Shown: positions 1,042 to 32,284 of the stretch, piece after piece | Position numbering within the stretch: the stretch's first letter is position 1 | Layout: the number at the start of each line of letters is the position of its first letter | Program-made: the position numbers and the translations under genes | Notes under the pieces: generated by a model | What the model was told of the DNA's origin: nothing | Database searches by the model: none | What the model saw: the letters and a program-made list of their open reading frames with translations, nothing else | Source: Bradymonadia bacterium | GTDB taxonomy: Bacteria; Myxococcota_A; Bradymonadia; UBA7976; UBA1532 | Assembly (NCBI GenBank): GCA_046290225.1 | Contig: JBKAGE010000072.1 | Span: 1-35,763, forward strand | Length of the DNA: 35,763 bases | Direction of reading: 5' to 3'

Positions 1042-2632
<1,591 letters not shown>

Positions 2633-2636
<4 letters not shown>

Positions 2637-4342: not shown

Positions 4343-4346
4343 GTGA

Positions 4347-5711: not shown

Positions 5712-5721
5712 CGTGTCTCCT

Positions 5722-8610: not shown

Positions 8611-8690
8611 GGCAACACCAGGGGTCGAGGTGAGGGAGCATCATACAGGCTTCGTCAACGATGAAGCCAAGGCAGGCGCGAAGGCCTGGA

Positions 8691-9878
8691 TCACTGACCA
8701 AGCAGGTAACCCACGAGCAGCATGCCCGTGGAGGTGTTCACCACCGCATCGCTGTCGATGTTGTCGTTGATGTCCAGGACCCCCTGAGTGACGCGTAGCT
8801 CGAGGGTCAACGCGCCGAAGTCCACCCCACCTCCGACGAGCCACCCTGCGTCGAAGCCACTGAAGCTCTCTTCGACATCGGAGAGTTCTGACCCATCAAA
8901 TTCTCCGCTCGCCGAGGTCAGTATGCCTGTGAAGACACCGCCCACCACGAATGGATTGAACTCGAAGTCGCCGAAATTGTAGCGAAACCCAACGGTAGAT
9001 TCGAAGTAGTTGAGACTGACGGAGCCCTCACCAGAGAAGCCGTCGATGGTGAACGTCGACCCTTTCTGCACGTAGCCCAGGTCGAGGATCATGTCGAGGC
9101 TCTCGCCCAGAGGCGTCTGAAGTCTGGCGTACAGTGCCAGGCCGGACTTCGAGTCGTATTCTTCGAGGTCGCTGTCTGTACTCAAACTCGCGGCTGTGAC
9201 GCCTACGAGGAGCGCCGGGCCACCCGCGCGCCTGTTCGACTGGCTCACTGCGGGCTTGGGCTCTGGTTCCGTAGCCGGCTCGGGGTTCGGCTCCGTGACC
9301 GGCTCGGGCTTCGGCTCGGGTGTGGGCTCGGGTTTGGGCTCGACCTTGGGCTCTGGTGCAGGTGCCACCGTGGCCTTCTGAGCGAGTTGAGAGAACATCC
9401 GACGGGCGGCCTGCACCACAGGCTCTTCCAACGTATCCACGTCGGCCGCCGAGGCCCGCTCACTGGCCAGCAGCGCACCATTACCGGTCTCGTACAGCTT
9501 CATGGTGACTTTGAGCTTGCTGCCGAACTTGATGATCTGCCCCGACACCACGAAGTCGGCGCCGACGTTGCGGCCTGTCTCGACCTCGCAGCTGCCTTCG
9601 CAGCTGGCGAGATCGACCCCAGGAGGCAACATCTCAAGGATGTTCTCCCGGGTCATGATCAAGTAGCCCCCCTGGGGCAGCCGGGTGGCCTCGCCGCGGA
9701 CCAGGTCGGGCACATACTTCGCTTCGGGCTCCGTGAGACCGGCGGTGTTGATGAACTCGAGCACGGCGATTTTCTTGCGGCCCTGAGCGTTGGTGGCCGT
9801 CGACAGAGCGACGAGCAACATCAGCGTCGTCCACACACAGGACAGAGTACGATATGGCAAGTTCATGATGTCTCTCAC
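8691..9878 (-). CDS. Outer-membrane protein: signal peptide, CsgG/LpoB-like N-terminal domain (KIAVLEFIN), (PEPK)n Pro-rich linker, C-terminal OMP beta-barrel-like domain.
   Basis: Signal ...ALSTATNAQ. Alternating hydrophobic pattern and aromatic-rich C-terminal 180 aa. GTG start at 9878 or ATG at 9866. Confidence 0.6.
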   Translation of the reverse strand: MRDIMNLPYRTLSCVWTTLMLLVALSTATNAQGRKKIAVLEFINTAGLTEPEAKYVPDLVRGEATRLPQGGYLIMTRENILEMLPPGVDLASCEGSCEVETGRNVGADFVVSGQIIKFGSKLKVTMKLYETGNGALLASERASAADVDTLEEPVVQAARRMFSQLAQKATVAPAPEPKVEPKPEPTPEPKPEPVTEPNPEPATEPEPKPAVSQSNRRAGGPALLVGVTAASLSTDSDLEEYDSKSGLALYARLQTPLGESLDMILDLGYVQKGSTFTIDGFSGEGSVSLNYFESTVGFRYNFGDFEFNPFVVGGVFTGILTSASGEFDGSELSDVEESFSGFDAGWLVGGGVDFGALTLELRVTQGVLDINDNIDSDAVVNTSTGMLLVGYLLGQ

Positions 9879-15479: not shown

Positions 15480-17264
15480 TTGAAATTTTTCGACGCGCTC
15501 AGGCAATCCTCCACCCCCTTCCTGCTCATGGGCACGATGGTGGTGGCAGGCTGTGGTCAGGAGGGGGTCAGCGATGACCCGGTGACCGGCGGCATGCTCG
15601 GTGAAAACGCCGGCGCCGCTGGCGGCGCTGGCGGCGTGGCCGGTGGCGGTGAAGATCCCCTCGAGCCCATCATGCCCACCTGTGACGCAGGGAACATGGA
15701 TCCCGGCCCCGCGTTGATTCGTCGGCTCACCCGCCAGGAATACAACAACAGCGTCCGCGATCTCTTCGGCTTCGACTCGATGTCCATCGCCGACGAGTTC
15801 CTCCCTGAAGAGGAGATGCTGGGCTTCAACAACCAGGCGGCTTCCCTGCAGGTCTCCCCGGTGCACGTCGAAGAGTACATGAACGCCTCGGAGGCCATCG
15901 CCCGCCGGGCGGTGAGCGAGCGCTACCTCGACCTCGTCGGCGTCGCCCCTGCTGATCTCACCGGCGAAGCCCTCGACGCCTTCATCCTCGACTTCGGCAT
16001 GAAGGTGTGGCGCCGCCCCCTCGAGATGGCCGAGCAGGTGGCGCTCCGAGGCCTCGCCGATCAGGCCGAGGGCCTGATGCCCGACCAGGTCTGGGGCGAG
16101 GCCGCCGTCGAGGTCGTGCTCCGGGCCATGCTGCAGTCGCCGAACTTCCTGTTCCGCATCGAGGTGGGTGAGCCCATGGCCGAGCGCCCGGGTGTCGCCG
16201 CGCTCAACGCCTACGAGATCGCCACTCGCCTGTCGTACCTCATCTGGCAGAGCACCCCCGACGACGCCCTGCTTGAGGCCGCCGGCTCGGGGCGTCTGGT
16301 CACGCCGGAGGAGATTCAGGCGCAGACCCGCCGCATGCTCGAAGACGATCGCGCCCGCTCGGCCATGATGGACTTCTTCGATCAGTGGCTGCGGGTGGGG
16401 CACCTCGAGGAGGTGGATCCTGATCCGAACTACGTAGAGAACTTCGATCCCGAGATCGTGCCCCTCTTCGAGCAGGAGACCCATCGGTTCCTCGAGGCTC
16501 TGGTCTGGGGCGAGGGCACACACGATCTGCGGCAGCTCTTCACCGCCCCCTTCACCTTCGTGAACGCCACCCTCGCCGAGCACTACGGCCTCGACCACCT
16601 CATCGAAGAGGGTGCCGTCGGCGAAGAGTTCACCCGCGTGGCCCTCGACGGCGAGACCCGCCGGGGCGTGCTCACTCAGGCCTCGGTCCTGTCGGTGACG
16701 AGCAAGCCCAACATGACCAACCCCATCGAGCGCGGCCTCTACGTGCGCAGCCAGATCCTGTGTCACGTGCTGCCCTCCCCGCCGGCCGATCTGGCGGTGG
16801 TGGCTCCGGAGCCCGATCTCAGCCGCCCCACCCGGGAGATCTTCGCTCAGCACTCCAACGACAACGCCTGCATCGGCTGTCACTCCCTCATCGATCCCGT
16901 GGGCTTCGCCTTCGAGCACTACGACCCGGTGGGTCGCTGGCGCGACTTCGAGCGCGAGTTCCCTGTGGACGCCAGCGGCGCCCTCACGGCCACCGACGAC
17001 GCCAACGGCGAGTTCTACGGGGTGGTCGAGATGAGCGATCTGCTCGGTGAGTCGGAGCAAGTGCAGCGCTGTATCTCGACCCAGGTCTTCCGCTTTGCCT
17101 TTGGTCGGGGGGAGACTGCAGCCGATGACTGTACTCTGGACGACGCGTACGACCACTATGCAGAGTCCGGGTACGACTTCCTGGCTTTGGTGGAGCACCT
17201 GACGATGAGCGAGGCCTTCCGTTACCGCCGCCTTGACGGCTTCCCCACCGAGGGGGGCCAGTGA
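15480..17264 (+). CDS. DUF1592/DUF1587/DUF1595/DUF1585/DUF1588-family lipoprotein (Planctomycete-type PSD/PSCyt architecture) with a CXXCH heme-binding-like motif.
   Basis: TTG start with AAGGTGGTG RBS. Lipobox LLMGTMVVAGC. Hallmark N-terminal RRLTRQEYNNSVRDLFG. C-terminal CIGCHSLIDPVGFAFEHYD. Confidence 0.8.
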   Translation: MKFFDALRQSSTPFLLMGTMVVAGCGQEGVSDDPVTGGMLGENAGAAGGAGGVAGGGEDPLEPIMPTCDAGNMDPGPALIRRLTRQEYNNSVRDLFGFDSMSIADEFLPEEEMLGFNNQAASLQVSPVHVEEYMNASEAIARRAVSERYLDLVGVAPADLTGEALDAFILDFGMKVWRRPLEMAEQVALRGLADQAEGLMPDQVWGEAAVEVVLRAMLQSPNFLFRIEVGEPMAERPGVAALNAYEIATRLSYLIWQSTPDDALLEAAGSGRLVTPEEIQAQTRRMLEDDRARSAMMDFFDQWLRVGHLEEVDPDPNYVENFDPEIVPLFEQETHRFLEALVWGEGTHDLRQLFTAPFTFVNATLAEHYGLDHLIEEGAVGEEFTRVALDGETRRGVLTQASVLSVTSKPNMTNPIERGLYVRSQILCHVLPSPPADLAVVAPEPDLSRPTREIFAQHSNDNACIGCHSLIDPVGFAFEHYDPVGRWRDFEREFPVDASGALTATDDANGEFYGVVEMSDLLGESEQVQRCISTQVFRFAFGRGETAADDCTLDDAYDHYAESGYDFLALVEHLTMSEAFRYRRLDGFPTEGGQ

Positions 17265-18640
17265 TGTCCAAGTACGGTATGTCGAACGCCAGGATGTCGG
17301 CCACTCGGCGCATCAGCCGCCGCAACTTCATCCGTGGGGCCGCCGGCGGCCTCATGGCCCTGCCCCTTTTGAGCGAGCTCGGCGGCGGCGTGGCCCGGGC
17401 GCAGGCTCAGGAGGCGTTCCCCAAGCGCTTCATCGTCTTCTTCCAGCCCAACGGCACCCTCAAAGAGCTCTGGAGCCCCCAAGGCCAGGGCGCCGACATG
17501 GTGCTGCCGGAGCTGCTGGCTCCCCTCACCCCCTTCAAAGATCAGCTGAACATCTTCGACGGGGTGGACAACACTGTGGGCCACATGGGCCCTGGCGGTC
17601 CGCACCATCGCAGCATTTCTTCGGTGCTCACGGGGGCCATCATCCAAGAGGGTGACTTCGTCTCCAACGACGGCCGCCGTGCCGGCTGGTCCGGTGGCGC
17701 ATCCCTCGATCAGATCATGGTGGACGCCCTGAATCCCCCGACGCAGTTCGGCAGCCTCGAGCTGGGGGTGAACGTCCGCGAGAACGTGCCCATGGGCCGC
17801 ATGATCTACCGCGGCGCAGGTCAGCCTCTGGCCCCGGAGAACGATCCCCGGGCGGCCTACGATCGCTTGTTCTCCATGGTGAGTCAGGCCCCGGGCGAGC
17901 TCGACAAGCTCGCCCTGCAGCGCCGCTCGGTCCTCGATGTGCTTAAGGCCGACTTCAGCCGCCTCAACCGCAAGCTGGCCACCCCAGATCGCGAGAAGCT
18001 GGGGCAGCACCTCGACTCGGTCCGGGCCCTGGAGCGCCGCCTGGGCATTGTGGGCTCAATGAACGACGCCTGCGCCAACCTCGCTCGTCCGCCGGAGATG
18101 GACGTCACCGACGAGGAGCTGATCGAGGCGGTGATGCGCCTTCAGATCGACATTCTGGTGACGGCGATGTCGTGTGATCTGACCCGTATCGGCAGCATCC
18201 AGTCGTCCTCGGCCTTCAACAAGATCCGCTTCAAGTTCCTCGGCCTCGACGATCGCGACGGACACTCGCTGTCACACGCCGGCGACAACAACATGGATCT
18301 CCAAGAGAAGTGGCGCCGCATGCTGACGTGGTACTCCACGCAGTTCGCCTACCTGCTCGAGCGCCTGGCCTCGGTGCCCGAAGGCGACGGCACGATGCTC
18401 GACAACACGATCGTGCTCTGGTGCTCGGAGCTGAGCCGCGGCAACACCCACAACCTGAACGATCTGCCCTTCCTGCTCGCAGGGAAGGGTGGCGGGGCCC
18501 TGCAGACGGGCCGCCACCTGGTCTACGACGGTGTACCCCACAATGATTTGTTGCTGGCGGTGCTGAAGGCCATGGATGTGGAGCAGGCGACGATTGGGCA
18601 TGCGGAGCTTTGCTCTGGGCCTTTGTCCGGAGTGCTTTAA
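17261..18640 (+). CDS. DUF1552 (HXXSHH-family) protein with a twin-arginine signal, the usual partner of DUF1592 proteins.
   Basis: TAT motif RRISRRNFIRGAAGGLMALPLL. HSLSHAGD matches the HxxSHH-type motif. 4-nt overlap with the upstream gene (GTGATG). Confidence 0.8.
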   Translation: MMSKYGMSNARMSATRRISRRNFIRGAAGGLMALPLLSELGGGVARAQAQEAFPKRFIVFFQPNGTLKELWSPQGQGADMVLPELLAPLTPFKDQLNIFDGVDNTVGHMGPGGPHHRSISSVLTGAIIQEGDFVSNDGRRAGWSGGASLDQIMVDALNPPTQFGSLELGVNVRENVPMGRMIYRGAGQPLAPENDPRAAYDRLFSMVSQAPGELDKLALQRRSVLDVLKADFSRLNRKLATPDREKLGQHLDSVRALERRLGIVGSMNDACANLARPPEMDVTDEELIEAVMRLQIDILVTAMSCDLTRIGSIQSSSAFNKIRFKFLGLDDRDGHSLSHAGDNNMDLQEKWRRMLTWYSTQFAYLLERLASVPEGDGTMLDNTIVLWCSELSRGNTHNLNDLPFLLAGKGGGALQTGRHLVYDGVPHNDLLLAVLKAMDVEQATIGHAELCSGPLSGVL

Positions 18641-18641
18641 A

Positions 18642-18704
18642 AGAGAGTTTTCGGGCACGGGCACGGGCACGGGCACGGGCACGAGTTGATTCGGGTGTTG
18701 ACCC
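18642..18704 (+). repeat. Left 63-bp terminal inverted repeat of a 297-bp element: aGAGAGTTTTC-(GGGCAC)x5-GAGTTGATTCGGGTGTTGACCC.
   Basis: Exact reverse complement of 18876-18938. Begins 2 nt after the TAA stop of the DUF1552 gene. Confidence 0.85.
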
Positions 18705-18875
18705 GTGGCCCTGCATGACTCCGCTCGTAGGTGTGTAATGCTCTACTCAGCCCCACGCTCTTCCTCATTGGAGGATTTGTGCTCCATACCTCCAAGACCT
18801 GAAGCCTCAAGCCATTCTGAAACACATCCACTCAGCATCAATGACAACCGTCGCCCTGAGTCCAGGAGGGGCTAC

Positions 18876-18938
18876 GGGTCAACACCCGAATCAACTCGTG
18901 CCCGTGCCCGTGCCCGTGCCCGTGCCCGAAAACTCTCT
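18876..18938 (-). repeat. Right 63-bp terminal inverted repeat (GGGTCAACACCCGAATCAACTC-(GTGCCC)x5-GAAAACTCTCt).
   Basis: Exact reverse complement of 18642-18704. Lies 36 nt downstream of the lipocalin gene stop, with the G-rich strand on that transcript. Confidence 0.85.
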
Positions 18939-18974: not shown

Positions 18975-19490
18975 TCATCTCTGCGGCATCAACTCCAGCT
19001 TCCCCACGGCAAAATGGTTCGCCTTCAGCCGCTCGATGATCCCCACATACACCTTCGGATCCATCTTCGGCGTGCGGGCCATGATCCACAGATGCTTCCG
19101 TGTGGGCTCACTCACCACGGTCCACTGATAGCCCGGGTCGAGATCGATGACCCAATAGTCGTAGTCGAAGAACACATAGAACGTAGACTCGAAGCGACCA
19201 TCCTTGCCATCGCCCTCGCGATCGACTGACCCTTCGAGGGTCTTCAGCTCGCCGTCGAAGCCCCCGATCCAGCACTTGTCCACCAGATCGAACTCGTCTT
19301 CGTCATCGAGGGTGTAGATGGCCTGCATGCCATAGCAGTTCTTCTGCTCGTCTTCGGGGAAGCTGGCGATGACGTACCACGTGCCCATGTACCGCTCGAG
19401 ATCGACCTTCGACACGGCCTCGAGCTTGGGCTTGGCCCAAGCAGTCGAGCACATGCAGAGCATGAACAGGAGAAGTCGCAGGGTGTGCAT
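18975..19490 (-). CDS. blc: Bacterial lipocalin (Blc-like outer-membrane lipoprotein).
   Basis: Lipobox FMLCMCS. Lipocalin SCR1 motif VDLERYMGTWYVIA. C-terminal WTVVSEPTRKHLWIMARTP. GGAG SD 8 nt upstream of ATG 19490 (the ORF extends to 19514). Confidence 0.8.
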   Translation of the reverse strand: MHTLRLLLFMLCMCSTAWAKPKLEAVSKVDLERYMGTWYVIASFPEDEQKNCYGMQAIYTLDDEDEFDLVDKCWIGGFDGELKTLEGSVDREGDGKDGRFESTFYVFFDYDYWVIDLDPGYQWTVVSEPTRKHLWIMARTPKMDPKVYVGIIERLKANHFAVGKLELMPQR

Positions 19491-19537
19491 CGTCGGTCTC
19501 CGTAGCGGTATCATCCCCCAGCGATTGGGAGAGCGAG

Positions 19538-20023
19538 ATGAACCATAACCCGCAACGCACGACGAAACCCAGCCTGTGGCTCATGGTGCCCCTGCGACTG
19601 CTGCAGGCCTTCATCGGGTTGATTCTGCTGGCCACGGCCCTGGGCAAAAGCCTCGACATCCCAGGTTTTGCCGACGTGGTGGGCACTTACCAGGTGCTGC
19701 CGGAATGGAGCTGGATGCTGGTGGCGGTGGGCATGACGGGTTTCGAGTGGGTGCTTGGCGCCTGGCTGCTCTCAGGACGTAAACTGACACAGGCGGCCCT
19801 GGTGAGCGCGGCGCTACACACGGCATTCTTCGGCTGGGCGAGCCTGGCGCTGTATCGCGGGCTCGAGCTGTCCAACTGTGGATGCTTCGGGGTGTTCCTG
19901 GCCCGGCCGCTGACGACGGCGACGCTGTGGGAGGACGGCTTCATGGTGGGGTTCTCGCTAGCGCTGGCGCTGCTGGCGAGGCTGCACACATGCTCGATGA
20001 CCCAGCCTGCCCTCTCCTCATGA
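19538..20023 (+). CDS. MauE/DoxX-like small integral membrane protein (CGCFG motif).
   Basis: 161 aa, 4 predicted TM helices. Motif SNCGCFGVFLARPL is characteristic of the MauE family (from memory). GGGAGAGCGAG SD. Confidence 0.6.
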   Translation: MNHNPQRTTKPSLWLMVPLRLLQAFIGLILLATALGKSLDIPGFADVVGTYQVLPEWSWMLVAVGMTGFEWVLGAWLLSGRKLTQAALVSAALHTAFFGWASLALYRGLELSNCGCFGVFLARPLTTATLWEDGFMVGFSLALALLARLHTCSMTQPALSS

Positions 20024-20048: not shown

Positions 20049-20588
20049 TTACAAGCCCAGTTGCTTCACCATCGTGGGAAAGTCCGGAGCGACAACCTGC
20101 CAAATAGGCACCAGGGAGTCCGATAATACTGATGAGCCGCGCTTTTCTGGAATCGCCTTCCAATAGTTGCACAGAACCTGTGGTCTCTCCATGGAGTTGC
20201 GGTAATCCAACACCAAGCTGGAATCATCTCCAATCTCGAACTCGGCTAAATCAATGGCCAGATCCATATCCAAGCCCCGTGCAGCCCCCATTCCATTGTT
20301 CGCAGCCAGCCAGTAGCTCGGGTTTGCGAGTGCACTCTCGCGCACAGTCAGAAAGGGCGGTGATAGCAAATAGATGGCATCTCGCAAACAAAATGCACTG
20401 ACTTGTGCCCGAGGCACCCATTGAGCCTCATATTGCTGAGTACTCGCTTCCTCTGAGTTCTTGGGCCAGCGGCCTGTATTGAGCATCTCGAGCAGTAAAG
20501 GCGGAAGTGGAAGAGTGTATTTATACATGCATGAGCCTCCAAAGCTCACCGCAGAGATATCACCCAATAGAAGACGAGCATACCCCAC
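20049..20588 (-). CDS. Low-GC hypothetical protein, possibly a SUKH/SMI1-KNR4-like immunity-type protein (alternative start at 20528, MYKYTLPLPP).
   Basis: Distinctly AT-richer codon usage than its neighbours. Motifs LPLPPLLLEMLNTG, DSSLVLDY and C-terminal FPTMVKQLGL resemble the SUKH-1 pattern (from memory, weak). Confidence 0.4.
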   Translation of the reverse strand: MGYARLLLGDISAVSFGGSCMYKYTLPLPPLLLEMLNTGRWPKNSEEASTQQYEAQWVPRAQVSAFCLRDAIYLLSPPFLTVRESALANPSYWLAANNGMGAARGLDMDLAIDLAEFEIGDDSSLVLDYRNSMERPQVLCNYWKAIPEKRGSSVLSDSLVPIWQVVAPDFPTMVKQLGL

Positions 20589-20902
20589 CGTCTTCGACGA
20601 GCCCGGGGCAGCTCAACCCACCAAGTCGAGCCTACTGGAGTGAGGCTCATATGGAATGAGTATTTTGTCTGGCCGCAGTTCACCACCCCACAATTTCCTC
20701 ATCCATGACGTACCACAACAACACGCAGTCTACGTCCTGAGCACCCATAGAGAGAGCACCGCGTAGAGGCGGAGGCCTCGGGAGTGGGCGGCTGCGTCGT
20801 GAGGCGTGGTGGCTGAGTGGTGACTCAACCGCAGGCGCAGCAGCGCTGCGTCGAGGATTGCGGCGCCGCTCAGACGCCGCGCATCGCGGGGCAGACGCCC
20901 GC

Positions 20903-21670
20903 TCACGGGGCCGGAGCCTCGGAGCCCCAACGAATGTACCAGGACACAATCCCGCCCCAGCCATCCAACGGCACCCGAGCGTAGCTATAGAACACATCCA
21001 GGTTCAGCAGCGCCGACGACGTTGGCCAGCCTTCCAAGATCACCCCACCGCTCACGCGGTTTGGGATCACCCCCTGCCCACGGATGCGGCCCACCGTGTG
21101 CTCCCCGTAACCCCACCAGGACACCCCTTGCCCCGGCAACGCGCCGGCGAAGCGGTACATCAGGGCCGAGGCCTGCTCGATGGACCACTCCTCGTCCAGA
21201 ATCAGATCTCGAAAGATCTCCTCCTGGCGGAAGCCTCGGTGGCGATACACCCCTGTCGTGCGGCTATAGAGCCACCAGTCCGACGTGCGGATGTTGAGGT
21301 TCATCTGAGGGCGGACCAGCCAGCGCAGGCCGTAGGTGCGGGTGGTCACGTCGCCTTTCCCCTGATCAGGGCCCAGCTTCAGAAAAAAACCCGGCTCCGC
21401 CCCCGCGTCCACGTGGAACTCCAGCCAGGCCGGATCCGTCTTGTAGCTGAGCTGTACCCCCAGGCCGTTGGCGAAGACCAGCCACTCGTTGTAGAGCGCC
21501 AGCCCGAAGCCATCATCCCCGACGTCCCAGCCCGCGTCGTAGCGGAGGAACAGGCCTTCAGGGTTCACGATGAGCGCGCCCGTGAGAGTGTGGTGGGGAT
21601 CATCAGCGAGGACTGGAGAGGCGGCGAGGGCCCCGAGCGCGACGAGGGCGCTCGGGAGGGCGCGGATCAC
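20903..21670 (-). CDS. Secreted hypothetical protein (signal peptide, Trp/Gly-rich); last gene of the radical-SAM operon.
   Basis: Signal ALGALAASPVLADD. The start overlaps the stop of the DUF547 gene by 4 nt. No domain recognised. Confidence 0.55.
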   Translation of the reverse strand: MIRALPSALVALGALAASPVLADDPHHTLTGALIVNPEGLFLRYDAGWDVGDDGFGLALYNEWLVFANGLGVQLSYKTDPAWLEFHVDAGAEPGFFLKLGPDQGKGDVTTRTYGLRWLVRPQMNLNIRTSDWWLYSRTTGVYRHRGFRQEEIFRDLILDEEWSIEQASALMYRFAGALPGQGVSWWGYGEHTVGRIRGQGVIPNRVSGGVILEGWPTSSALLNLDVFYSYARVPLDGWGGIVSWYIRWGSEAPAP

Positions 21671-22458
21671 TCCTTGACCGGCTTGTTCAGCGTCCAGTCG
21701 TAGGGGCGGTAGGTGATCCGGATGTCGGGGGGGATCTCCAAATCAGCAGCGGAGCCGTTGATCCAGCGGATGACCGTGGGGGGGAAGTCCTCGGCGTACC
21801 ACTCGAAGATCTGGCTGAGGAGCACGCGATCCGCCACCTTCTTCACGTTGCGCTCCTCGTGCAGGAACTTCACCGTCTCCCGGGTGAGCTGCTCCTCGAG
21901 CTTCTCCGGCAAGAAAGGCTCGTTGGGCAGCTGCGGGCAGCCCACGCTGGCGCAGTTGAGGGCGAAGTGGATGCGGGGCTCCTTGAAGGTGGGGCGGATC
22001 ACCTTGTTCTCGAGATCGTAGAGGGCGATGTCCTGGCCATCGAGCACGAACTCGGTGAAGTAGAAGAAGTTCTTCGGATCATCGTTCACCGACACGAACT
22101 TGGGCAGCCGGTTGATGACGTTGAACATGGTGAGGGCGTTGTAGGCGTTGATGTAGTACGCCAGCCGATCCTCTTTGGTCTTGAAGAGGTTCGGAGTCTT
22201 GCGAGGGCCCGCGGCGGCGATGAGGGCCACGAAGCGATCGAGGCCCTCGCGGTTGGCCTTGAGGGCGGAGTAGTTCACTCGACCGGCGTCGTCGACGTAG
22301 GTCTTCAGCACCTCGGTCCAGTCGGTGTAGTCGAAGCTCTTCATGCCCGAGACCTTGCTCGGATCGATCTCGACCTTGGGCTTGACGGTGCTGGAGCAGG
22401 CGGCGCCGAGCATCAGACAGCTGATGGCGGCGAGGAAAGTACGAATCATGCGGCTCAA
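21667..22458 (-). CDS. DUF547-domain lipoprotein.
   Basis: Lipobox LMLGAAC. LAYYINAYNALTMFNVIN matches the DUF547 core motif (a-F-W-I-N-x-Y-N-a). 4-nt overlaps on both sides. Confidence 0.65.
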   Translation of the reverse strand: MSRMIRTFLAAISCLMLGAACSSTVKPKVEIDPSKVSGMKSFDYTDWTEVLKTYVDDAGRVNYSALKANREGLDRFVALIAAAGPRKTPNLFKTKEDRLAYYINAYNALTMFNVINRLPKFVSVNDDPKNFFYFTEFVLDGQDIALYDLENKVIRPTFKEPRIHFALNCASVGCPQLPNEPFLPEKLEEQLTRETVKFLHEERNVKKVADRVLLSQIFEWYAEDFPPTVIRWINGSAADLEIPPDIRITYRPYDWTLNKPVKE

Positions 22459-23849
22459 CCGGCCCTCCGGATAGGCTCTTTGATGGAGACCAGGCGATCC
22501 TGGTCCTTGAGATTCTGTTTACGGCGCATGTCGGTGCCGTTGAGTCGACACATCGACACCATCTCGCCGTCGATGGGCACCTTGAACGAACAGGCGTCGA
22601 GGCGGGCCTTGCCCTCCTCGGTCTCCAGCTCGTGGGCGCTCATGAAGTTGTGCACCACCACGCCGAAGGGGCTCACGCGCCAACGGCGGCGGGCGGCGAC
22701 GGCCTTGAGGAACTCCGGCACCCAGGCCCGCTCCTCCCAGACCCGGCTCGCGCAGAAGGTGGGGATGCTCCACAGGTAGCGGGGGCTCTGGGCGAAGCGG
22801 CCCATCAAGCGGGCGAGCACCAAGTGCCCGGCCTCGCCGTCGGGGCTGAAGCCTGCGAGGCCATCGCTGATCAGGCGCTCGAAGAAGACCCGATCTTTGT
22901 CGACACCTTCTCGGGTGACCTCCATGAGCTGAGTCTGCTCATTGCCCTCGGCGTCTTCGTATTTGATCACCCAGAACATGCTCACCGAGTTGCACTGCGG
23001 GTGGCCGAAGCGCATGGCGTGGCGGTTGAGGTGCAGGCCTGCTCCCTCGCGGACCTGGTTCCAGAGGGCCTCACGCTGGTTCACCTGCTCGCTCTCACGG
23101 GTGCGCCCCACATCGGCGGTGGGCTGCAGGCTGAACAGATAGAAGGCGTCGCTGTTGTCGATGAACCACCGCAACACCTCGGGCACCTGCTCGAAGTTGT
23201 CTTCGGTCACTGTGAAGGTGCCCGCGGCTTCGAAGTTGATCCCCGTCTTCTTGCGGGTCTGGCGCACCAGATTGGCGAAAGCGTCTCTGATCCAGTGGAT
23301 GTCGGTCTCGGTGTCTCGAGCCCGCAACCCCAGGCGGCCCTTCTGAGTGGTATCGATGTGGAACGCCACCTTGCGCAAGTGCCCCTCCACGAGCAGGCGC
23401 TCGAGGTAAGTCGGATCTTTCAAGATGGTCTGACCATTGGTCATGAGCATGGGGGTGAGCTGAATCTCGTGGCAGTACCGCAAGATCTCGATCAGCTCGT
23501 CACAGGGCAGCAGGGTGACCTCGCCGGCGGTGATCTGGGTGCTGCCCCAGGGACCGAGATGCTCACGGATCTGGTCGAGCTGAGCCTTCACCTCGTGCAT
23601 GGGCAGCGGCGGGGTGTCGTCGGCGACGTCGGCGAGATAGCAGGCGGTGCATTTGAAGTCGCAGGCCTCAAGCACGCCATAGGTGGCGGCGCAGCCCGCA
23701 GACTGCTTGCCCAGGACCTGATTGGGCACCTGCAGATCCGGGGGCAGGTTGTCCCAGGTGCGCTGCGCGGCGCCGGCTTTGTCTGCGTGCACAGGGTTGA
23801 GGAAGGCGGAGACAGTCTCGCGGGCGGTGCGCAGCGTGCGCGTGATCAT
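22455..23849 (-). CDS. Radical SAM enzyme of unassigned subfamily. The C-terminal roughly 250 aa show no SPASM or B12 motifs I can recognise.
   Basis: CxxxCxxC = CDFKCTAC at about residue 64-71, with Y after the third Cys. Downstream ITAGEVTLLP matches the GGEP-like SAM-binding motif. Two further Cys near the C-terminus (CSFK...SMC). Confidence 0.8.
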   Translation of the reverse strand: MITRTLRTARETVSAFLNPVHADKAGAAQRTWDNLPPDLQVPNQVLGKQSAGCAATYGVLEACDFKCTACYLADVADDTPPLPMHEVKAQLDQIREHLGPWGSTQITAGEVTLLPCDELIEILRYCHEIQLTPMLMTNGQTILKDPTYLERLLVEGHLRKVAFHIDTTQKGRLGLRARDTETDIHWIRDAFANLVRQTRKKTGINFEAAGTFTVTEDNFEQVPEVLRWFIDNSDAFYLFSLQPTADVGRTRESEQVNQREALWNQVREGAGLHLNRHAMRFGHPQCNSVSMFWVIKYEDAEGNEQTQLMEVTREGVDKDRVFFERLISDGLAGFSPDGEAGHLVLARLMGRFAQSPRYLWSIPTFCASRVWEERAWVPEFLKAVAARRRWRVSPFGVVVHNFMSAHELETEEGKARLDACSFKVPIDGEMVSMCRLNGTDMRRKQNLKDQDRLVSIKEPIRRAG

Positions 23850-24004
23850 GATCCAACCTCTCTGATCGCCGCCCTGCTCTCGGCGGCGTTCATCGCGTCA
23901 CTCGGGTGTGCGTCCATGCACGACATGAAAAGGTGTGCGTGCACAGTACGCAATGGGCCCGTCTGGAGCAATCACTGGTCGCGATGAGAGGTTGCGAGCA
24001 GGAC

Positions 24005-25261
24005 TCAGCCCTCGGCGTCTTCACTGCGGGGCTTGGTGTCGGGGAAGTACTTGCGCTCGATCGTCTCGTAGTAGTCGATGATCTGGCGCACGTAGGCCCG
24101 CTTCTTGAGGTAGGTGCCGGGGAAGAAGCTGCGCTTGAAGCCATAGATGATGATGGAGCGCAGATCGTCCCGATCGATGTCGAGGTGCTCCACGGCGAGG
24201 GACAGCTCCCGGGTGACGGTGGTGTCGCTCACGGTGCGGTTGTCGGTGCAGATGGTGGTGGACAGCCGGTGCTTGCGCAGCGTCTTGAAGCTGTGCTGCG
24301 AGAGCGAATCCATGTGGGGGTTCGTCTGCAGGTTGCTCGTGAGACAGACCTCGAGGGTGATGCGCCGATCGGCGATGTACTCACCGAGTGACTCGACGTA
24401 GGCCTCTTTGTCTTTGATGCCTTCTGTCTGGATGGCGTTCGGATCGAGCAGGTAGGTGCCGTGGCCGATGCGATCAGCGTGCAGATCGGTGATGGCCTGG
24501 AAGATGCTCTCGGGGCCATAAGCCTCGCCGGCGTGCACCGTCTTCTTGAGGAACTTCTTGTGGGCGTGCTGGAAGGCGTCCATGTGGGACTCTGCGGGGT
24601 AGCCCGCCTCTTCGCCGGCAAGGTCGAAGCCCACCACCGGCAGCCCGTAGTCGTCACGGGCGATGACCGCGGCCCGGGCCAGCTCCATCGACGCCATGGC
24701 GTACACCTCGTCATCGGGGGTGTAGGTGTGGGCCCGGTGGATGTTGGAGAAGTACTCGCTGAAGGCCGGCGTGAACATGCGCATGGCGCAGCAGATGATG
24801 CCGTACTCGAAGGGGGGCTCGGTGCCAGAGCTGACCTCTGTGCGGCTGTTGAACTCGTCTTTGGCTTTCTTGAGGCCCCGGTTCACCGCCTTGATCACCG
24901 TGACGGTGTTCATGTGCTGGTGCACGTGCAGCTGAGGGGCGAAACGCACCTCGAGGTAACGCACGCCTTCGGCCTGGTTGTCCTGAGCGAGCTCGTAGGC
25001 CACGCGCTCCAGGGCCACCTCGCTCTGCATCACCGCCACGGTGTAGGCGAAGCCCTGCAGATACTCGCCGAGGTTCTTGTAGCGACCCTTGAAGACCTTC
25101 TCGCGCAGACCAGCCTCGGTGTAGCTGGGCAGCTCGACGTTGTACTCACGGGCGAGGTCGATGAGGGTGGGGATGCGGATGGAGCCGTCGAGGTGGACGT
25201 GCAAATCGGTCTTGGGGAGTTCTTTGAGGAACTCGAGGGGGATCTCTTCCCGTGCGCTCAC
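24005..25261 (-). CDS. Adenosine/adenine deaminase-family metallohydrolase (ADA fold). At 418 aa it is longer than typical Add.
   Basis: N-terminal LPKTDLHVHLDGS (the ADA HxHxDG zinc motif). Conserved downstream His/Asp such as ...HAGE... and ...SDD-like TDNRT. The subfamily needs a database check. Confidence 0.75.
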   Translation of the reverse strand: MSAREEIPLEFLKELPKTDLHVHLDGSIRIPTLIDLAREYNVELPSYTEAGLREKVFKGRYKNLGEYLQGFAYTVAVMQSEVALERVAYELAQDNQAEGVRYLEVRFAPQLHVHQHMNTVTVIKAVNRGLKKAKDEFNSRTEVSSGTEPPFEYGIICCAMRMFTPAFSEYFSNIHRAHTYTPDDEVYAMASMELARAAVIARDDYGLPVVGFDLAGEEAGYPAESHMDAFQHAHKKFLKKTVHAGEAYGPESIFQAITDLHADRIGHGTYLLDPNAIQTEGIKDKEAYVESLGEYIADRRITLEVCLTSNLQTNPHMDSLSQHSFKTLRKHRLSTTICTDNRTVSDTTVTRELSLAVEHLDIDRDDLRSIIIYGFKRSFFPGTYLKKRAYVRQIIDYYETIERKYFPDTKPRSEDAEG

Positions 25262-27994: not shown

Positions 27995-30900
27995 GTGAGG
28001 CGGCCCGAGGGGCGGTTCTGGCCTGATCCCCGTAAAGCGGGCCGACAGGTGAGGCGGGCTTCGGCGCGGCTCTATCAGCGCTTCAGCTTTCCGTTGATCA
28101 TGCTTGGGGCCTTCTTGGGCCTCGTGTATTGCCTGACCTACTTCCTCATCAACTCCGGCTACGCCGTCCGGGCTTTCGACGAGACCGTCAACCCCCTGTT
28201 CCGAGGGCGCATCGTCTGGGAGCGGGTCACCTGGGGGCCACTGCCCTGGCGCATTCGCGTGCTCGGCGCCCGCATCGTCGATGGAGACAACCGCACGCTC
28301 TGCTCGGCAAAAGAGGTCCGGGCCTCGGTCGATCTCAAAGCCCTGCTCGACTTCAAGATTTTCGCGAAGGACATCGAGGTCAACGACGCCGAGGTGAAGG
28401 TGGTGGTGGGGGCCGAGCCCGACCCGGTATACGGCTTCGACGTCACCACGGTGAACCTCGCACAGGTCTTCCTGCCCCCAGGGCAACCCTACGATGATGG
28501 AGAGCGTGGGGTGGTCCCTCACCTGAGGTTCACCTCGGCCACCGTCCGCAACGCCCACGTCACCGTGGACGTGGGCACTGCCTGGCTCGATCACACAGGG
28601 GTCGATGTACTTGGCGGGCGCTTCGAGCTGACCCCTGAGGGCCTGTTGAAGATGGGGGCGTATCAGATCGACGCCGAGCGGGTCGATCTGCGGGTGGCGA
28701 AGACTGAAGATCCAACGCCAGTGCACCGGCGGCCTCTCGACTCGGTCTATCGCTGGATCATCGAGCGGGTGAGCGCCCGGGGCATCGACTGGGTCGGGCT
28801 CGCCTTCGACGTCAAAGAGTTCCGGGGCCAGGTTCAGGGCGACACCGTGAAGGCCGAGGCGTTCCACATGGATCTCGACCGCCCGGGGCTGCCCTACGTC
28901 AAGGCCCGAGGCACCTTCGACACCGACGACATCTCCCGACAGATGATCACGGTGGATGCGCCCGCTTTCACGGGGCCGGTGAAGGCCCGATTCGAAGGTG
29001 AAGGCGATCTGTTCAGCGTCAAAGGCACCTTCTCCATGGAGGGCCGCCGCCTGGGCCTCGACGACTGGCAGACGGGTGCATGGGATCTCAAAGGGCGGGC
29101 CCTCAACAACACGCTCTTCTTCGATGAAGGCAACTTCGAAGCCTATGGAGGCCAGATTGGCTTCACGGGGGCTCTGATCGGCGAAGAAGGCACGATCCAC
29201 GGGCGCCTCGATGTCGACAATGTTCACCTCGAGCGCCTGCCTCAAGGGCCCGGTGAAGCCTTCGCTGGCCCTCTGAGGGGTCTCGTGGGCATTCAGCTGA
29301 GGGGGCTCTTCGACGAGCTGTGGCTCGGTGCAGACGCTCGGCTCTGGCTCGATCGCTTCACAGGGGCACCCGACATCGCGGGCCTGCCTCTGGGGCGTAA
29401 GATCTTCGCGGCCGTCTCGGCGCAGATGTTCCGCGACGAGATCACTGTCACTCAGCTCGACGTCGACAGCGCCCACGCGGATGTCTGGAGCAGCGGCACG
29501 CTCGATCTCGCGGCGAGCACCCTCGACTTCCGCGCCCGCCTCCGTAGCCCGGAGGTACGCCCGCTGGCCCTCGGGCTGGGGCTCGACGCCCGAGGCAGCC
29601 TGACCGTGAACGGCACCATCACGGGGGCCCTCGTCGATCCCACGATCTCGCTGCGGGCGAAGAGCCCGGCTCTGGATTACACGCCCACCCCCGATTTGCC
29701 CTTCAAGCGGGTAGGCCTCGACGCCCGCCTCACGTACGGGCAGGGCCTCCTCACGCTCAAAGAGGCCTCTGCGCGCCTCGCCGGCGGTCGGATCGTCGCC
29801 TCGGGTACGGTGGGTGTCGGTGACGATCGCATCCCCCTACGGCTCTCGGCGCGGCTGAAGCAGATCCGCGCTGAAGATCTCCCACTGCCATTGTCTGCCG
29901 ACGTCCGGGGCGTGCTCACGGGCAAGGTCAAGCTCACCGGCCCCGCTCGACGTCCCGCCGTCGACGGGCGCCTCGCCATCGCCCGCCCCCGCTGGAACCG
30001 GCTGGCCTTCACCGCCCTCGTGCTCGACGGCCGATACAGCGGCAACCAGGTGAAGGTGCGGGCCCTCTCGGTGGTCGATGGCCAGCGCACCCTGGTGAAG
30101 GGCTCTGGGGGTCTCGATCTCCGCAAAGAGACCTTCGATCTCGACCTGCACCTCAACGCCGCCTCTCTCGAGCTGATCAACAAGGTGGTCGACACCCCCG
30201 TGCCGATCCGGGGCACGGTGACGATGGACTTCACCGGCGGAGGCACCTTCAAAGATCCGAAGGGTGGCGGCACGCTGGTGCTCGAAGATGTGGTGTATGG
30301 CGTGCCGCCCGAGCAGGACGCCTTCGAACTCGAGTGGAGCGCCGAGCTCAACGTCACCGCGGACAACCGCCAGCTCACCCTCGACGGCAGCCTGTCGGAA
30401 GGCATCGAGCTCCGCGCCGATGTGCCTCTCTACCCCGATGGCCCCCCGACGACGGCCGAGATCACCTTCGACGAGCTGTCCCCGGATGATCCGCTGTTGC
30501 GCAACTTCATCCCGCCCCTCGACGAGGAGGTCTTCACCGAGCCCCCAGTGCTCACGGGCCGCATCAACGCCACCGGCGACGCGTGGTCCGGGGCGCTCTA
30601 CGAGGCCGACCTCACCCTCGACACGCTGCGCACGAGCATCCAGGACCAGGTCTTCGAGTCGGAGAAGGCCGTGCAGCTGGTGTATCGGGACAACCAGATC
30701 AAGGTGAAGCGTTTGTCCCTCGTCGCCGCGGGGCAGCGCCTGGAGATCAGCGGCGGCGCTGATCTCGACGGGTTCCTCGATTTGCAACTCACCGGCGAGG
30801 TCGATCTCGAGCAGCTGCACATCTTTCTGCTCGACACCTTCAACAGCATGCGCGGCCTCGCCTGGCTCGACCTGCGCATCACCGGGCCCTTCGAAGATCC

Positions 30901-32284
30901 CATGCCCTCGGGGGTGCTCACCCTCACCGACGCCTATCTGACGCCAAAGCGCTCACTCATTGCCCGGGAGATCGAGCTGCTGCAGCCTGTGGACGTCACC
31001 GTCGCCGGGCTGTTCGGCCCGAACCCCACGCCGGGCAACTTCGCCATCACCCTGCCCGACCGCCGGGTGGCAGTGGATCCTGGGGCTGGGGAAGAGCGGC
31101 CCCTCAACCGGGTGGTCATGCGCCGCGACGATGGCGAAGTCTATGTGAAGGGCATCGAGCTGGTCTTTGCCAATTACGCGCCGCAGTCGCTGGTGATCAA
31201 AGCCGACGGCGACAACCTCACCTTCAACGTGCCTGACACGACCCGAGGCACGACCAATGTCGCCGATCTGCAGTTCGAACTCATCGACATGGATCGCCCC
31301 CAGCTGACCCGTATGACCCTCGCTGGCGACTTCTACCTGGTTCGGGCCGAGTACGTCGCCGACGTGTACTCCACCTCGGAGATCAGCCAGGGCGTCACCG
31401 ACAACCTCTTCGGCCGTGCTCGGCGACGCTCCGTGAGCGCTTTCGAGCGGATCCCCCTGCTCAAGCGCATGGAGGTCGATCTGCTCATCAACGGCGACAA
31501 CGACATCTTCGTGCGCAATCAGGTGGCCACCTTGGCCCTGGACATGGAGATCCAGCCCGTCGACGTGCACCTCACGGGGAACCTGTTCTCCGATCTCAAC
31601 ATCGACGGCCAGGTGCTGGTGATCACCGACGACTCGACGATCACCTTCAGCGGCCGGGCCTTCGAAGTCATCGAGGGGCTGGTGAACTTCGACGGCGACA
31701 ACTTCCTTGAGACCAACATGCGCGCGCAACGGAACTTCGAGTTCCGCGAGAGCAGCTTCCAGAACGTGGGCAGTATTCTGGGCCCCGCCGGCGGCGAGCT
31801 CGATGAAGAGCTGGTGACCTTGATCTTCAGCCTAGTGATGCCCACCCCGAGCAGCGACTTCAAACCAGACATCAAATTCGAGAGCAGCAGCGGCGCGCCG
31901 CAGATCGACGTGCTCAGCCTGGTGCTCACAGGGCGCCGCATCGCTGATCTCAACGCCGACGCAGCAGCTCAGCCAGCCCTCGAGGTGGCCCTGAGCCCGC
32001 TGCTGAGCTACTTCGAGCGACCCCTCGAAGAGACCCTCGAGCTCGATCTGAGCGTGGTGCCTCAGACCACGGGCACGGTGGAGGTGGATGTAGACAAGAA
32101 GCTTGGTCAGCGCGTGCGCCTCTTCACCCGTGCCCAGGTGGGCAACGATGATGTGGGCAACCAGCTGATCCTCGGCGCGGAGTATCAGCTGAACAATGTG
32201 ACCTTCGGGGAGTTGACCAATGCCCGCATCGGGCTGCAGAACTCCACCACCGCCCGGTTGAGGTTCAGGTGGACTCTGGATTGA
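27995..32284 (+). CDS. TamB/AsmA-like translocation-and-assembly-module protein (N-terminal TM anchor, long beta-rich periplasmic body, DUF490-like C-terminus).
   Basis: 1429 aa. TM FPLIMLGAFLGLVYCLTYFLI. Repetitive amphipathic beta-strand composition. C-terminal ...ARLRFRWTLD. GTG start; the true start could be a little downstream. Confidence 0.65.
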   Translation: MRRPEGRFWPDPRKAGRQVRRASARLYQRFSFPLIMLGAFLGLVYCLTYFLINSGYAVRAFDETVNPLFRGRIVWERVTWGPLPWRIRVLGARIVDGDNRTLCSAKEVRASVDLKALLDFKIFAKDIEVNDAEVKVVVGAEPDPVYGFDVTTVNLAQVFLPPGQPYDDGERGVVPHLRFTSATVRNAHVTVDVGTAWLDHTGVDVLGGRFELTPEGLLKMGAYQIDAERVDLRVAKTEDPTPVHRRPLDSVYRWIIERVSARGIDWVGLAFDVKEFRGQVQGDTVKAEAFHMDLDRPGLPYVKARGTFDTDDISRQMITVDAPAFTGPVKARFEGEGDLFSVKGTFSMEGRRLGLDDWQTGAWDLKGRALNNTLFFDEGNFEAYGGQIGFTGALIGEEGTIHGRLDVDNVHLERLPQGPGEAFAGPLRGLVGIQLRGLFDELWLGADARLWLDRFTGAPDIAGLPLGRKIFAAVSAQMFRDEITVTQLDVDSAHADVWSSGTLDLAASTLDFRARLRSPEVRPLALGLGLDARGSLTVNGTITGALVDPTISLRAKSPALDYTPTPDLPFKRVGLDARLTYGQGLLTLKEASARLAGGRIVASGTVGVGDDRIPLRLSARLKQIRAEDLPLPLSADVRGVLTGKVKLTGPARRPAVDGRLAIARPRWNRLAFTALVLDGRYSGNQVKVRALSVVDGQRTLVKGSGGLDLRKETFDLDLHLNAASLELINKVVDTPVPIRGTVTMDFTGGGTFKDPKGGGTLVLEDVVYGVPPEQDAFELEWSAELNVTADNRQLTLDGSLSEGIELRADVPLYPDGPPTTAEITFDELSPDDPLLRNFIPPLDEEVFTEPPVLTGRINATGDAWSGALYEADLTLDTLRTSIQDQVFESEKAVQLVYRDNQIKVKRLSLVAAGQRLEISGGADLDGFLDLQLTGEVDLEQLHIFLLDTFNSMRGLAWLDLRITGPFEDPMPSGVLTLTDAYLTPKRSLIAREIELLQPVDVTVAGLFGPNPTPGNFAITLPDRRVAVDPGAGEERPLNRVVMRRDDGEVYVKGIELVFANYAPQSLVIKADGDNLTFNVPDTTRGTTNVADLQFELIDMDRPQLTRMTLAGDFYLVRAEYVADVYSTSEISQGVTDNLFGRARRRSVSAFERIPLLKRMEVDLLINGDNDIFVRNQVATLALDMEIQPVDVHLTGNLFSDLNIDGQVLVITDDSTITFSGRAFEVIEGLVNFDGDNFLETNMRAQRNFEFRESSFQNVGSILGPAGGELDEELVTLIFSLVMPTPSSDFKPDIKFESSSGAPQIDVLSLVLTGRRIADLNADAAAQPALEVALSPLLSYFERPLEETLELDLSVVPQTTGTVEVDVDKKLGQRVRLFTRAQVGNDDVGNQLILGAEYQLNNVTFGELTNARIGLQNSTTARLRFRWTLD

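Follow-up and report, generated by a model that had tools for sequence, protein, structure and literature searches.

The stretch of DNA analyzed here (the window; 35,763 nt, contig JBKAGE010000072.1 of a Bradymonadia bacterium, the source being described as a marine, myxobacterium-like genome) carries a translationally coupled operon of three minus-strand genes. These encode a radical SAM (S-adenosylmethionine) enzyme, a DUF547 protein, and an exported protein of 255 amino acids, referred to as P255. The radical SAM enzyme is a compact, distant structural relative of Tes/GDGT-MAS and not a member of the Tes family; it represents a distinct subfamily that is built like Tes but has new partners, and it lies outside the characterized subfamilies. 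Its pairing with DUF547 was found in at least eight phyla. We propose, tentatively and at less than even confidence, that the radical enzyme of the operon has a lipid-like substrate and works together with a periplasmic thiol-redox and outer-membrane module, which is possibly tied to organoarsenical lipids.

The operon and its radical SAM enzyme

The radical SAM protein is 100% identical to locus ACE366_23905, and its gene starts with an ATG that has GAGAGG ahead of it. The end of this gene overlaps the DUF547 gene by 4 nt (TTGA), with the TTG start of DUF547 on the TGA stop of the radical SAM gene and a GGAGG sequence 5 nt upstream; an alternative ATG start for DUF547 lies 9 nt downstream. 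The DUF547 and P255 genes are likewise joined by a 4-nt overlap (GTGA), the GTG start of P255 being placed on the TGA stop of DUF547. A preliminary description of the window, made from its sequence, had located these three open reading frames (ORFs) and the upstream adenosine deaminase (ADA) gene exactly and had recognized both overlaps, but it called the junctions ATGA-type. When the first start codon of each ORF was taken, the identical 4-nt junction between radical SAM and DUF547 genes was found in 16 loci (the window and 15 others), in both gene orders. Because it recurs in 15 other loci, the coupling of the two genes is not a chance feature of the window. A scan of the operon region for promoters and terminators gave no signal above the shuffled expectation. 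Just outside the operon, the 130 nt 3′ of the P255 stop have an unusually stable predicted RNA fold (−64.8 kcal/mol, z of −3.45), and no terminator-like site was called in this segment.

The radical SAM protein contains the cluster motif CDFKCTAC, a CxxxCxxC motif formed by C63, C67, and C70, as had been described. Its score with the Radical_SAM model PF04055 is 28.9 bits, just below the gathering score of 29.5, and despite this shortfall the invariant C63/C67/C70 place it in the radical SAM superfamily. PF04055 was the only Pfam match at an E value of ≤0.01, with no SPASM or B12-binding domain, and the SPASM-family NCBIfam models scored ≤24 bits. All 11 NCBIfam families listed for the protein were far below their cutoffs. 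The top one was TrsS (NF045646; 45.6 bits versus a cutoff of 490, over residues 50 to 266), followed by Tes (NF045702; 40.2 bits versus a cutoff of 450), and HpnH (TIGR03470) gave no match at an E value of ≤0.01. This agrees with the earlier placement of the enzyme outside the characterized subfamilies. The candidates considered and rejected, all far under their curated cutoffs, were HpnH, NirJ, viperin, AlbA, MoaA, the SPASM maturases, TrsS, and Tes. Gms, the GMGT synthase, was also set aside as a SPASM/twitch enzyme with a COG4001 domain, an architecture other than that of the present enzyme (PMC11214058). A word-indexed search returned 211 homologues at an E value of ≤0.001, with unnamed or generic annotations and 41 to 64% identity among the matches listed.

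Further analysis of an alignment of 25 homologues (alignment A1) showed that C53, C286, C420, and C434 are also invariant in the family, as is an H400-x-F402-M403 segment in the C-terminal domain. About 50 residues precede the CxxxCxxC motif, and these contain one invariant cysteine (C53) and two helices. By its sequence, the enzyme does have a conserved signature of a predicted auxiliary (second) Fe-S cluster. The C-terminal half had been described as having no recognizable accessory motif (SPASM, twitch, or B12), which is correct for SPASM and B12 matches, but it does hold the invariant C286, C420, C434, and H400/F402/M403.

The relationship to Tes was apparent at several levels. First, a profile of the family had one convincing match among the solved structures of the PDB, GDGT-MAS/Tes (7tol; E value of 3.7e-16), and a phmmer comparison of the enzyme with 7tol gave an E value of 8e-4. 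Second, when an AlphaFold2 (AF2) model of the enzyme (predicted local distance difference test score of 92) was searched with Foldseek, GDGT-MAS came first (E value of 2e-12, TM scores of 0.55 and 0.52 over 451 columns), and the other entries in the comparison had TM scores of ≤0.35. The fold match spans 334 residues, the C-terminal domain included. Third, in a second, weak stretch of the profile match (3.4 bits), Tes C456 is the counterpart of C420, C470 that of C434, and Met439 that of H400 (residues matched with a chain-to-native offset of 20 and with the native numbering of PMC9433317). Met439 is the labile ligand of the C-terminal [4Fe-4S] cluster of Tes (PMC9433317). Tes has four metal domains, and before C-C coupling the first substrate radical is parked on a sulfide of the C-terminal cluster (PMC13459092).

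This likeness bears directly on the possibility that the enzyme carries out the Tes/Mss reaction, joining two acyl or alkyl tail ends into spanning lipids of the diabolic-acid or branched glycerol dialkyl glycerol tetraether (brGDGT) type, with DUF547 as an accessory. The whole-chain fold match and the aligned ligands of the C-terminal cluster fit such a role, and radical parking on a cluster sulfide demands an auxiliary cluster of this kind (PMC13459092). The enzyme is also found in Acidobacteriota and Planctomycetota, the phyla of the bacterial Tes homologues proposed to make brGDGTs (PMC8941075; PMC11214058). However, identity to GDGT-MAS is only ∼15 to 17%, the Tes hidden Markov model (HMM) score is 40 bits against 450, and the rubredoxin and N-terminal cluster domains are missing. 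The published bacterial Tes homologues of Zeng et al. were defined by BLASTP at an E value of <1e-50, and the present enzyme falls outside this set (PMC8941075). Tes/Mss systems also have no counterpart of the periplasmic partner with a cysteine pair. Finally, the carriers of the enzyme include Verrucomicrobiota (Puniceicoccaceae and Roseibacillus) and Acanthopleuribacter, which are marine aerobes not known to contain spanning lipids. Taken with these points, a Tes/Mss reaction appears quite unlikely.

Conserved neighborhood and exported partners

The neighborhood of the radical SAM gene was compared in one genome per species, giving 80 related loci and the window (81 in total), with flanks of 6 kb. 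The carriers belong to the Myxococcota, Planctomycetota, Acidobacteriota, Verrucomicrobiota, Latescibacterota, Calditrichia, Bacteroidota, Gemmatimonadota, and others, and cultured ones include Acidobacteria bacterium Mor1, Acanthopleuribacter pedis, Sulfidibacter corallicola, and Puniceicoccaceae K14. A DUF547 gene was present beside the radical SAM gene in 47 to 48 of the 81 loci, in three arrangements and in at least eight phyla, the Planctomycetota among them. First, it lies downstream on the same strand, which is typical of the Myxococcota. Second, it lies upstream on the same strand, as is typical of the Acidobacteriota. Third, the two genes are convergent, the typical arrangement in the Verrucomicrobiota and Latescibacterota. 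With a few copies of the domain in each genome, such adjacency is far beyond chance, and its preservation through rearrangement argues that the radical SAM enzyme and DUF547 are a functional pair. The preliminary description had said that its reading would fail if the enzyme belonged to a known subfamily and its downstream genes were not conserved neighbors; what we found is an enzyme outside the known subfamilies with DUF547 as a conserved neighbor across phyla.

In an unbiased clustering of the flanking ORFs, nothing besides DUF547 was broadly conserved. The second recurrent neighbor is a protein of 245 to 256 amino acids with no Pfam or NCBIfam match, found in 7 of the 81 loci (Table 1). 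A flavin adenine dinucleotide (FAD) pyridine-nucleotide disulfide oxidoreductase adjoins the radical SAM gene in four loci from different phyla (L082, positions 6556 to 8004, the same locus as L025; L018; L049; and L077), and in the Calditrichia locus it overlaps the radical SAM start by 4 nt. Two further candidates, a 275-aa gene upstream in L081 and a 470-aa Cys-rich protein in L086, are not relatives of any part of the module.

The ADA gene, whose stop lies 155 nt from the start of the radical SAM gene, is clearly assigned (PF00962, 236 bits against a cutoff of 27; TIGR01430, 220.4 bits against 216.55). It had been linked to the radical enzyme as a possible processor of adenosine-type by-products. 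No ADA homologue was present within 6 kb of the radical SAM gene in any of the 80 related loci (0/80), another Bradymonadia genome included. The link was therefore dropped and ADA rejected as a part of the system; it is probably a neighbor in the window genome only.

The identity of the DUF547 protein was confirmed by PF04784 (74.5 bits against a gathering score of 27, residues 94 to 199). Its orthologues share an invariant HFALNCASxGCPxLP motif containing the cysteine pair C169/C174 (CX4C; alignment A2). The signal peptide of the window protein reads ...LMLGAAC followed by SS, which differs from the canonical lipobox L-[AS]-[GA]-C; the orthologues mostly have LTAC, LVGC, or AAGC after the signal, and a few have a transmembrane anchor and no cysteine. 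An AF2 model of the protein had no relative in the PDB. Two fusions hint at a coupling of DUF547 to thiol redox. One is a 477-aa protein of a sister locus, L085, that combines DUF547 with a ResA/TlpA-like thioredoxin domain, and the other is the Grx-DEP-DUF547 architecture of the class IV glutaredoxins of plants (PMC13621322). Our literature search found no paper that joins DUF547 with radical SAM enzymes; the DUF547 literature found consists almost entirely of plant transcript lists. As a separate observation, the N-terminal half of alignment A2 weakly matched subunit d of the Tetrahymena mitochondrial ATP synthase (PDB 6ynx, chain d; E value of 4.6e-4), which suggests a DUF547-like domain in that complex.

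The pairing could also mean that the radical SAM enzyme is a maturase of DUF547, modifying a residue in or near the NCASxGCP sequence in the cytoplasm before export, in the manner of anSMEs with sulfatases and QhpD with QhpC. Radical SAM maturases that modify later-exported proteins in the cytoplasm have precedent, and the tight translational coupling in both gene orders, the invariant cysteines of the exported DUF547 protein, and the nearby MauE-like gene (MauE being part of a system for cofactor maturation of a periplasmic enzyme) are all consistent with such a role. However, the DUF547 motif is just as invariant in many genomes and contexts without this radical SAM gene, operons with only ArsS included, and 21 fully flanked radical SAM loci have no DUF547 nearby. 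The enzyme also has no SPASM, twitch, or RRE-type domain for peptide handling and instead resembles a lipid-binding enzyme. We regard a maturase role as improbable.

P255 gave no match to Pfam, NCBIfam, or the PDB. An exhaustive search of 1.84 billion protein representatives yielded 38 clusters at 50% identity, and a word-indexed search found only 3 proteins; of two metagenome scans, the first found none and the second only 4 loci. The broad P255 alignment was too divergent for pattern design. Some trends were apparent in the sequences. The protein has a signal peptide, and most of 20 homologues end in W or F, with a 7-residue tail beyond the terminal W in the window protein. A period-2 pattern of hydrophobicity was seen in 164 of 247 sequence segments, whereas the helical DUF547 protein, used as a control, had it in 99 of 255. 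These features point to a probable outer-membrane β-barrel of roughly 10 to 12 strands. P255 adjoins DUF547 wherever the flank is available. It had been described as a secreted partner of the radical enzyme, and export stands; it is, however, not a general radical SAM partner but a rare, lineage-restricted protein that follows DUF547.

The MauE-like protein (PF07291, 62.1 bits) is encoded convergently with the operon. Its homologues stand directly beside P255 or DUF547 in L013/L090, L014/L091, L092, L093, and L095, and six contexts with MauE-like neighbors were found. It belongs to the module and is a probable redox partner. The preliminary description had the three operon genes right and missed this one as a fourth member. 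DUF547, P255, and the MauE-like protein form a submodule of probable periplasmic and outer-membrane location.

Arsenosugar, lipid, and redox contexts and the proposed function

Parts of the module recur in sister loci that carry the signature genes of arsenosugar synthesis (L085 to L091), and the arsenosugar models pass their cutoffs there: ArsS (TIGR04167), 409 to 427 bits against 300; TIGR04169, 185 against 120; TIGR04283, 220 against 182; and TIGR04282, 153 against 134. ArsS is a radical SAM enzyme that transfers the 5′-deoxyadenosyl group to arsenic and so makes the C-As bond in arsenosugar synthesis (bioRxiv 10.1101/2024.02.01.577332). In L088 and L089, the operon reads DUF547, P255, ArsS, the TIGR04283 glycosyltransferase, and an SDR protein, and in L086 and L087, DUF547 and P255 have ArsS and TIGR04283 close by. 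In L085 (positions 6571 to 9467), the DUF547-thioredoxin fusion is followed by a PAP2_3 domain in frame with P255 (488 aa), which may be two genes given an internal Met and a signal-like segment; TIGR04169, TIGR04282, ArsS, and two nucleoside-cleaving enzymes are in the vicinity. The Tes-like radical SAM gene itself takes part in two cases. In L091, it is followed by TIGR04169 and ArsS in one operon, with a divergent operon of START, MauE, P255, and DUF547 genes. In L090, the order is Tes-like radical SAM, START-like, MauE, DUF547, TIGR04169, and ArsS, after which come a flavoprotein/NapH-like membrane protein, a PlsC-type acyltransferase, a thioesterase-type hydrolase, and a glycosyltransferase. 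The START domain of these two operons is a periplasmic lipid-binding one. The parts of the module are thus recurrently embedded among arsenosugar, thiol-redox, and lipid-handling genes.

Two other features of L090 were observed (positions 2923 to 7844 and 15601 to 17790). Two B12-binding radical SAM genes, a heme-oxygenase-like gene, and a metallo-β-lactamase-fold gene lie by the module. There is also a 729-aa YpdA-like flavoprotein with a fused NapH/MauN-like Fe-S membrane domain, which is seen again in L019 (positions 2245 to 4335).

In the reading that we prefer, the radical SAM enzyme would work with a 5′-deoxyadenosyl radical and, helped by a second Fe-S cluster, activate an otherwise inert C-H bond in a hydrophobic substrate of lipid-like character on the inner side of the membrane. 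The DUF547 protein, a putative lipoprotein, would act on the periplasmic side through its CX4C pair in a thiol-redox or thiol-binding step, its redox state being kept by the MauE-like protein or, in other genomes, by fused or adjacent thioredoxin-type domains, and the P255 barrel would provide the outer-membrane step in the window lineage. The product made or handled by the pathway would probably be a modified lipid of the envelope connected with organoarsenical metabolism, because parts of the module share operons with arsenosugar genes in sister genomes. We infer the substrate class and the direction of flow, and likewise any arsenic link for the window genome. The earlier suggestion that a radical enzyme in the cytoplasm cooperates with exported proteins of the envelope is retained here and gains precision from the Tes-like fold.

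Several lines of evidence favor this proposal: the aligned cluster ligands and the four extra invariant cysteines, the linkage to DUF547, the operons shared with arsenosugar genes, and two further themes. The first is a lipid theme, consisting of the Tes-like fold, the periplasmic START proteins of L090 and L091, the PAP2_3 domain in frame with P255, and the PlsC-type acyltransferase of L090. The second is a thiol theme, consisting of the invariant CX4C pair, the thioredoxin and Grx fusions, the MauE-like neighbors, and the FAD disulfide oxidoreductase of four loci. Several points weigh against it. ArsS lies within 6 kb of the radical SAM gene in only 3 of the 81 loci, and a tblastn search of the 35.7-kb window with all four arsenosugar proteins returned nothing. 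DUF547 is missing near the radical SAM gene in the 21 loci with full 6-kb flanks mentioned above, and its family is far larger than the pair (>2,355 matches) and is also found alone in unrelated contexts. The DUF547 fold has no solved relative, and its chemistry is guessed from one motif and the fusions. The barrel nature of P255 is drawn from sequence features alone. The radical SAM enzyme is under every curated cutoff, that of Tes included, and is without two of the four metal domains found in Tes; for these reasons, the substrate of Tes cannot be transferred to it. Finally, no published experiment was found on any member of the radical SAM or DUF547 family.

The same gene contexts could instead reflect a soluble substrate. 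According to this alternative, the radical SAM enzyme acts on a small soluble metabolite or metalloid species, for example in an arsenosugar or selenium step parallel to that of ArsS, and DUF547, P255, and MauE import or reduce it. The operons of L090 and L091, with ArsS and the peroxidase-like TIGR04169 protein, would suit such a step, as would the top NCBIfam model, TrsS, which is an uncharacterized selenoprotein radical SAM family. Arsenate reductases also feature a cysteine pair coupled to thioredoxin or glutaredoxin. Against this, ArsS is near so few of the radical SAM loci (3/81), the fold match, C-terminal domain included, is to a lipid enzyme, and the START, PAP2, and PlsC neighbors suggest hydrophobic ligands. 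We regard this alternative as unlikely.

A more specific version of the lipid proposal is that the radical SAM enzyme may be the missing one that places arsenic on the tail ends of lipids. Hydrogen would be abstracted at a terminal carbon, in the manner of Tes, and the radical captured by a trivalent methylarsenical, which would take the place of the second tail; the product would be an As-containing fatty acid, an As-containing hydrocarbon, or an arsenolipid related to these. DUF547 and the thioredoxin, Grx, or MauE proteins would supply or reduce the arsenical in the periplasm, and START and P255 would move the product across the envelope. This version, with all of its steps, is a long shot. 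Our literature search found no paper that names an enzyme for the arsenylation of arsenolipid tails.

To our knowledge, Tes/GDGT-MAS is the only enzyme that couples unactivated lipid tail ends via an intermediate bound to an Fe-S cluster. A compact bacterial relative of Tes distributed over at least eight phyla would extend such chemistry beyond archaeal tetraethers. DUF547, a domain of no known function that is also present in plants and ciliates, gains its first strong functional context, namely, a cysteine pair, Trx/Grx-type partners, and a radical enzyme. The recurrence with arsenosugar genes offers a concrete way into the question of how arsenolipids are made by marine bacteria, and these hypotheses are testable in the cultured carriers. 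A 2026 review of lipid-modifying radical SAM enzymes covers Tes, Mss, Gms, Grs, Gmm, Cds, the Hpn enzymes, Jaw5, and the ladderane enzymes and contains nothing like the present family.

Other features of the window and comparison with known systems

The features of the window, together with the second recurrent neighbor of the radical SAM gene in other loci, are listed in Table 1. A 179-aa ORF with no family match stands between P255 and the MauE-like gene, in the kilobase of lowest GC content of the window (0.571). In L092, L093, and L095, MauE abuts P255, and the ORF looks like an insertion. On the other side of the MauE-like gene, and divergent from it, a gene for a Blc-type outer-membrane lipocalin starts 23 bp away; the lipocalin may have a periplasmic lipid-binding role like that of the START proteins of L090 and L091. 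No homologue of the lipocalin or of the 179-aa ORF was present within 6 kb of the radical SAM gene in the 80 related loci, and both were rejected as parts of the module for want of a conserved neighborhood. Between the lipocalin gene and a DUF1552/HXXSHH gene is a 70-nt inverted repeat whose arms are 99% complementary, lie 157 nt apart, and hold runs of the hexamer (CGGGCA)n; it could be a hairpin or an element resembling a miniature inverted-repeat transposable element (MITE). Farther away, a gene for a 1,429-aa TamB/DUF748-type protein, immediately preceded by dapA and dapB, belongs to the ordinary envelope and housekeeping surroundings and has no relation to the operon.

Table 1. Features of the window and of the recurrent radical SAM neighbor in other loci
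Feature	Position	Strand	Description and basis
Radical SAM enzyme (Tes-like)	22455..23849	−	464 aa, cytoplasmic; ORF call, alignment A1, profile, fold
DUF547 protein	21667..22458	−	263 aa; Pfam PF04784, alignment A2, adjacency
P255	20903..21670	−	255-aa exported protein; rare family, sequence features
MauE-like integral membrane protein	19538..20023	+	CGC motif; convergent with operon; Pfam PF07291
Adenosine deaminase (ADA)	24005..25261	−	418 aa; PF00962, TIGR01430
Stable RNA fold	20780-20910	−	
179-aa ORF	20049-20588	−	
Blc-type lipocalin gene	18975-19514	−	
Inverted repeat	18642-18711 and 18869-18938		
TamB/DUF748-type protein gene	27995-32284	+	
Recurrent protein of 245-256 aa	L090 14765-15535		−	
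Recurrent protein of 245-256 aa	L002 5202-5936	+	
Recurrent protein of 245-256 aa	L006, L007, L008, L010, L019		

Four known systems resemble parts of this one. First, Tes/GDGT-MAS (Methanocaldococcus jannaschii MJ0619; PDB 7TOL/7TOM; NF045702) combines a radical SAM core with a C-terminal auxiliary-cluster domain, as our enzyme is predicted to do, and the HxFM segment of our enzyme aligns with the Tes MHFM around Met439 within the weak 3.4-bit stretch. However, identity is 15 to 17% and the Tes HMM score is 40.2 bits against 450. The present enzyme has neither the rubredoxin-like Fe domain nor the N-terminal [4Fe-4S] domain of Tes (C73/C77/C80 and a His), and its family has an invariant cysteine of its own, C53, located 10 residues before the CxxxCxxC motif. 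It is also bacterial and partnered by the exported DUF547 protein, whereas no such partner is known for Tes. Second, TrsS (NF045646) is the best-scoring curated HMM and also an uncharacterized radical SAM family, but the score of 45.6 bits is 10-fold under the cutoff of 490, and the function of TrsS is itself unknown (PMC13188914). Third, the MauE/MauD and ResA/TlpA thiol-redox systems likewise have a MauE-family membrane protein beside an exported protein with a cysteine pair, and the L085 fusion joins a ResA/TlpA-like domain to DUF547. In contrast to these systems, DUF547 does not have a thioredoxin fold (as judged from the AF2 model, which has no PDB relative), and no methylamine dehydrogenase or cytochrome maturation genes lie in the vicinity. 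Finally, in the arsenosugar set, DUF547, P255, the MauE-like protein, and sometimes the Tes-like radical SAM enzyme share operons with ArsS, TIGR04169, TIGR04282, and TIGR04283 in sister genomes, and ArsS is a radical SAM enzyme as well. The two radical SAM enzymes are, however, unrelated beyond the superfamily core, and the curated arsenosugar set does not include DUF547 or P255, just as the window does not include the genes of that set.

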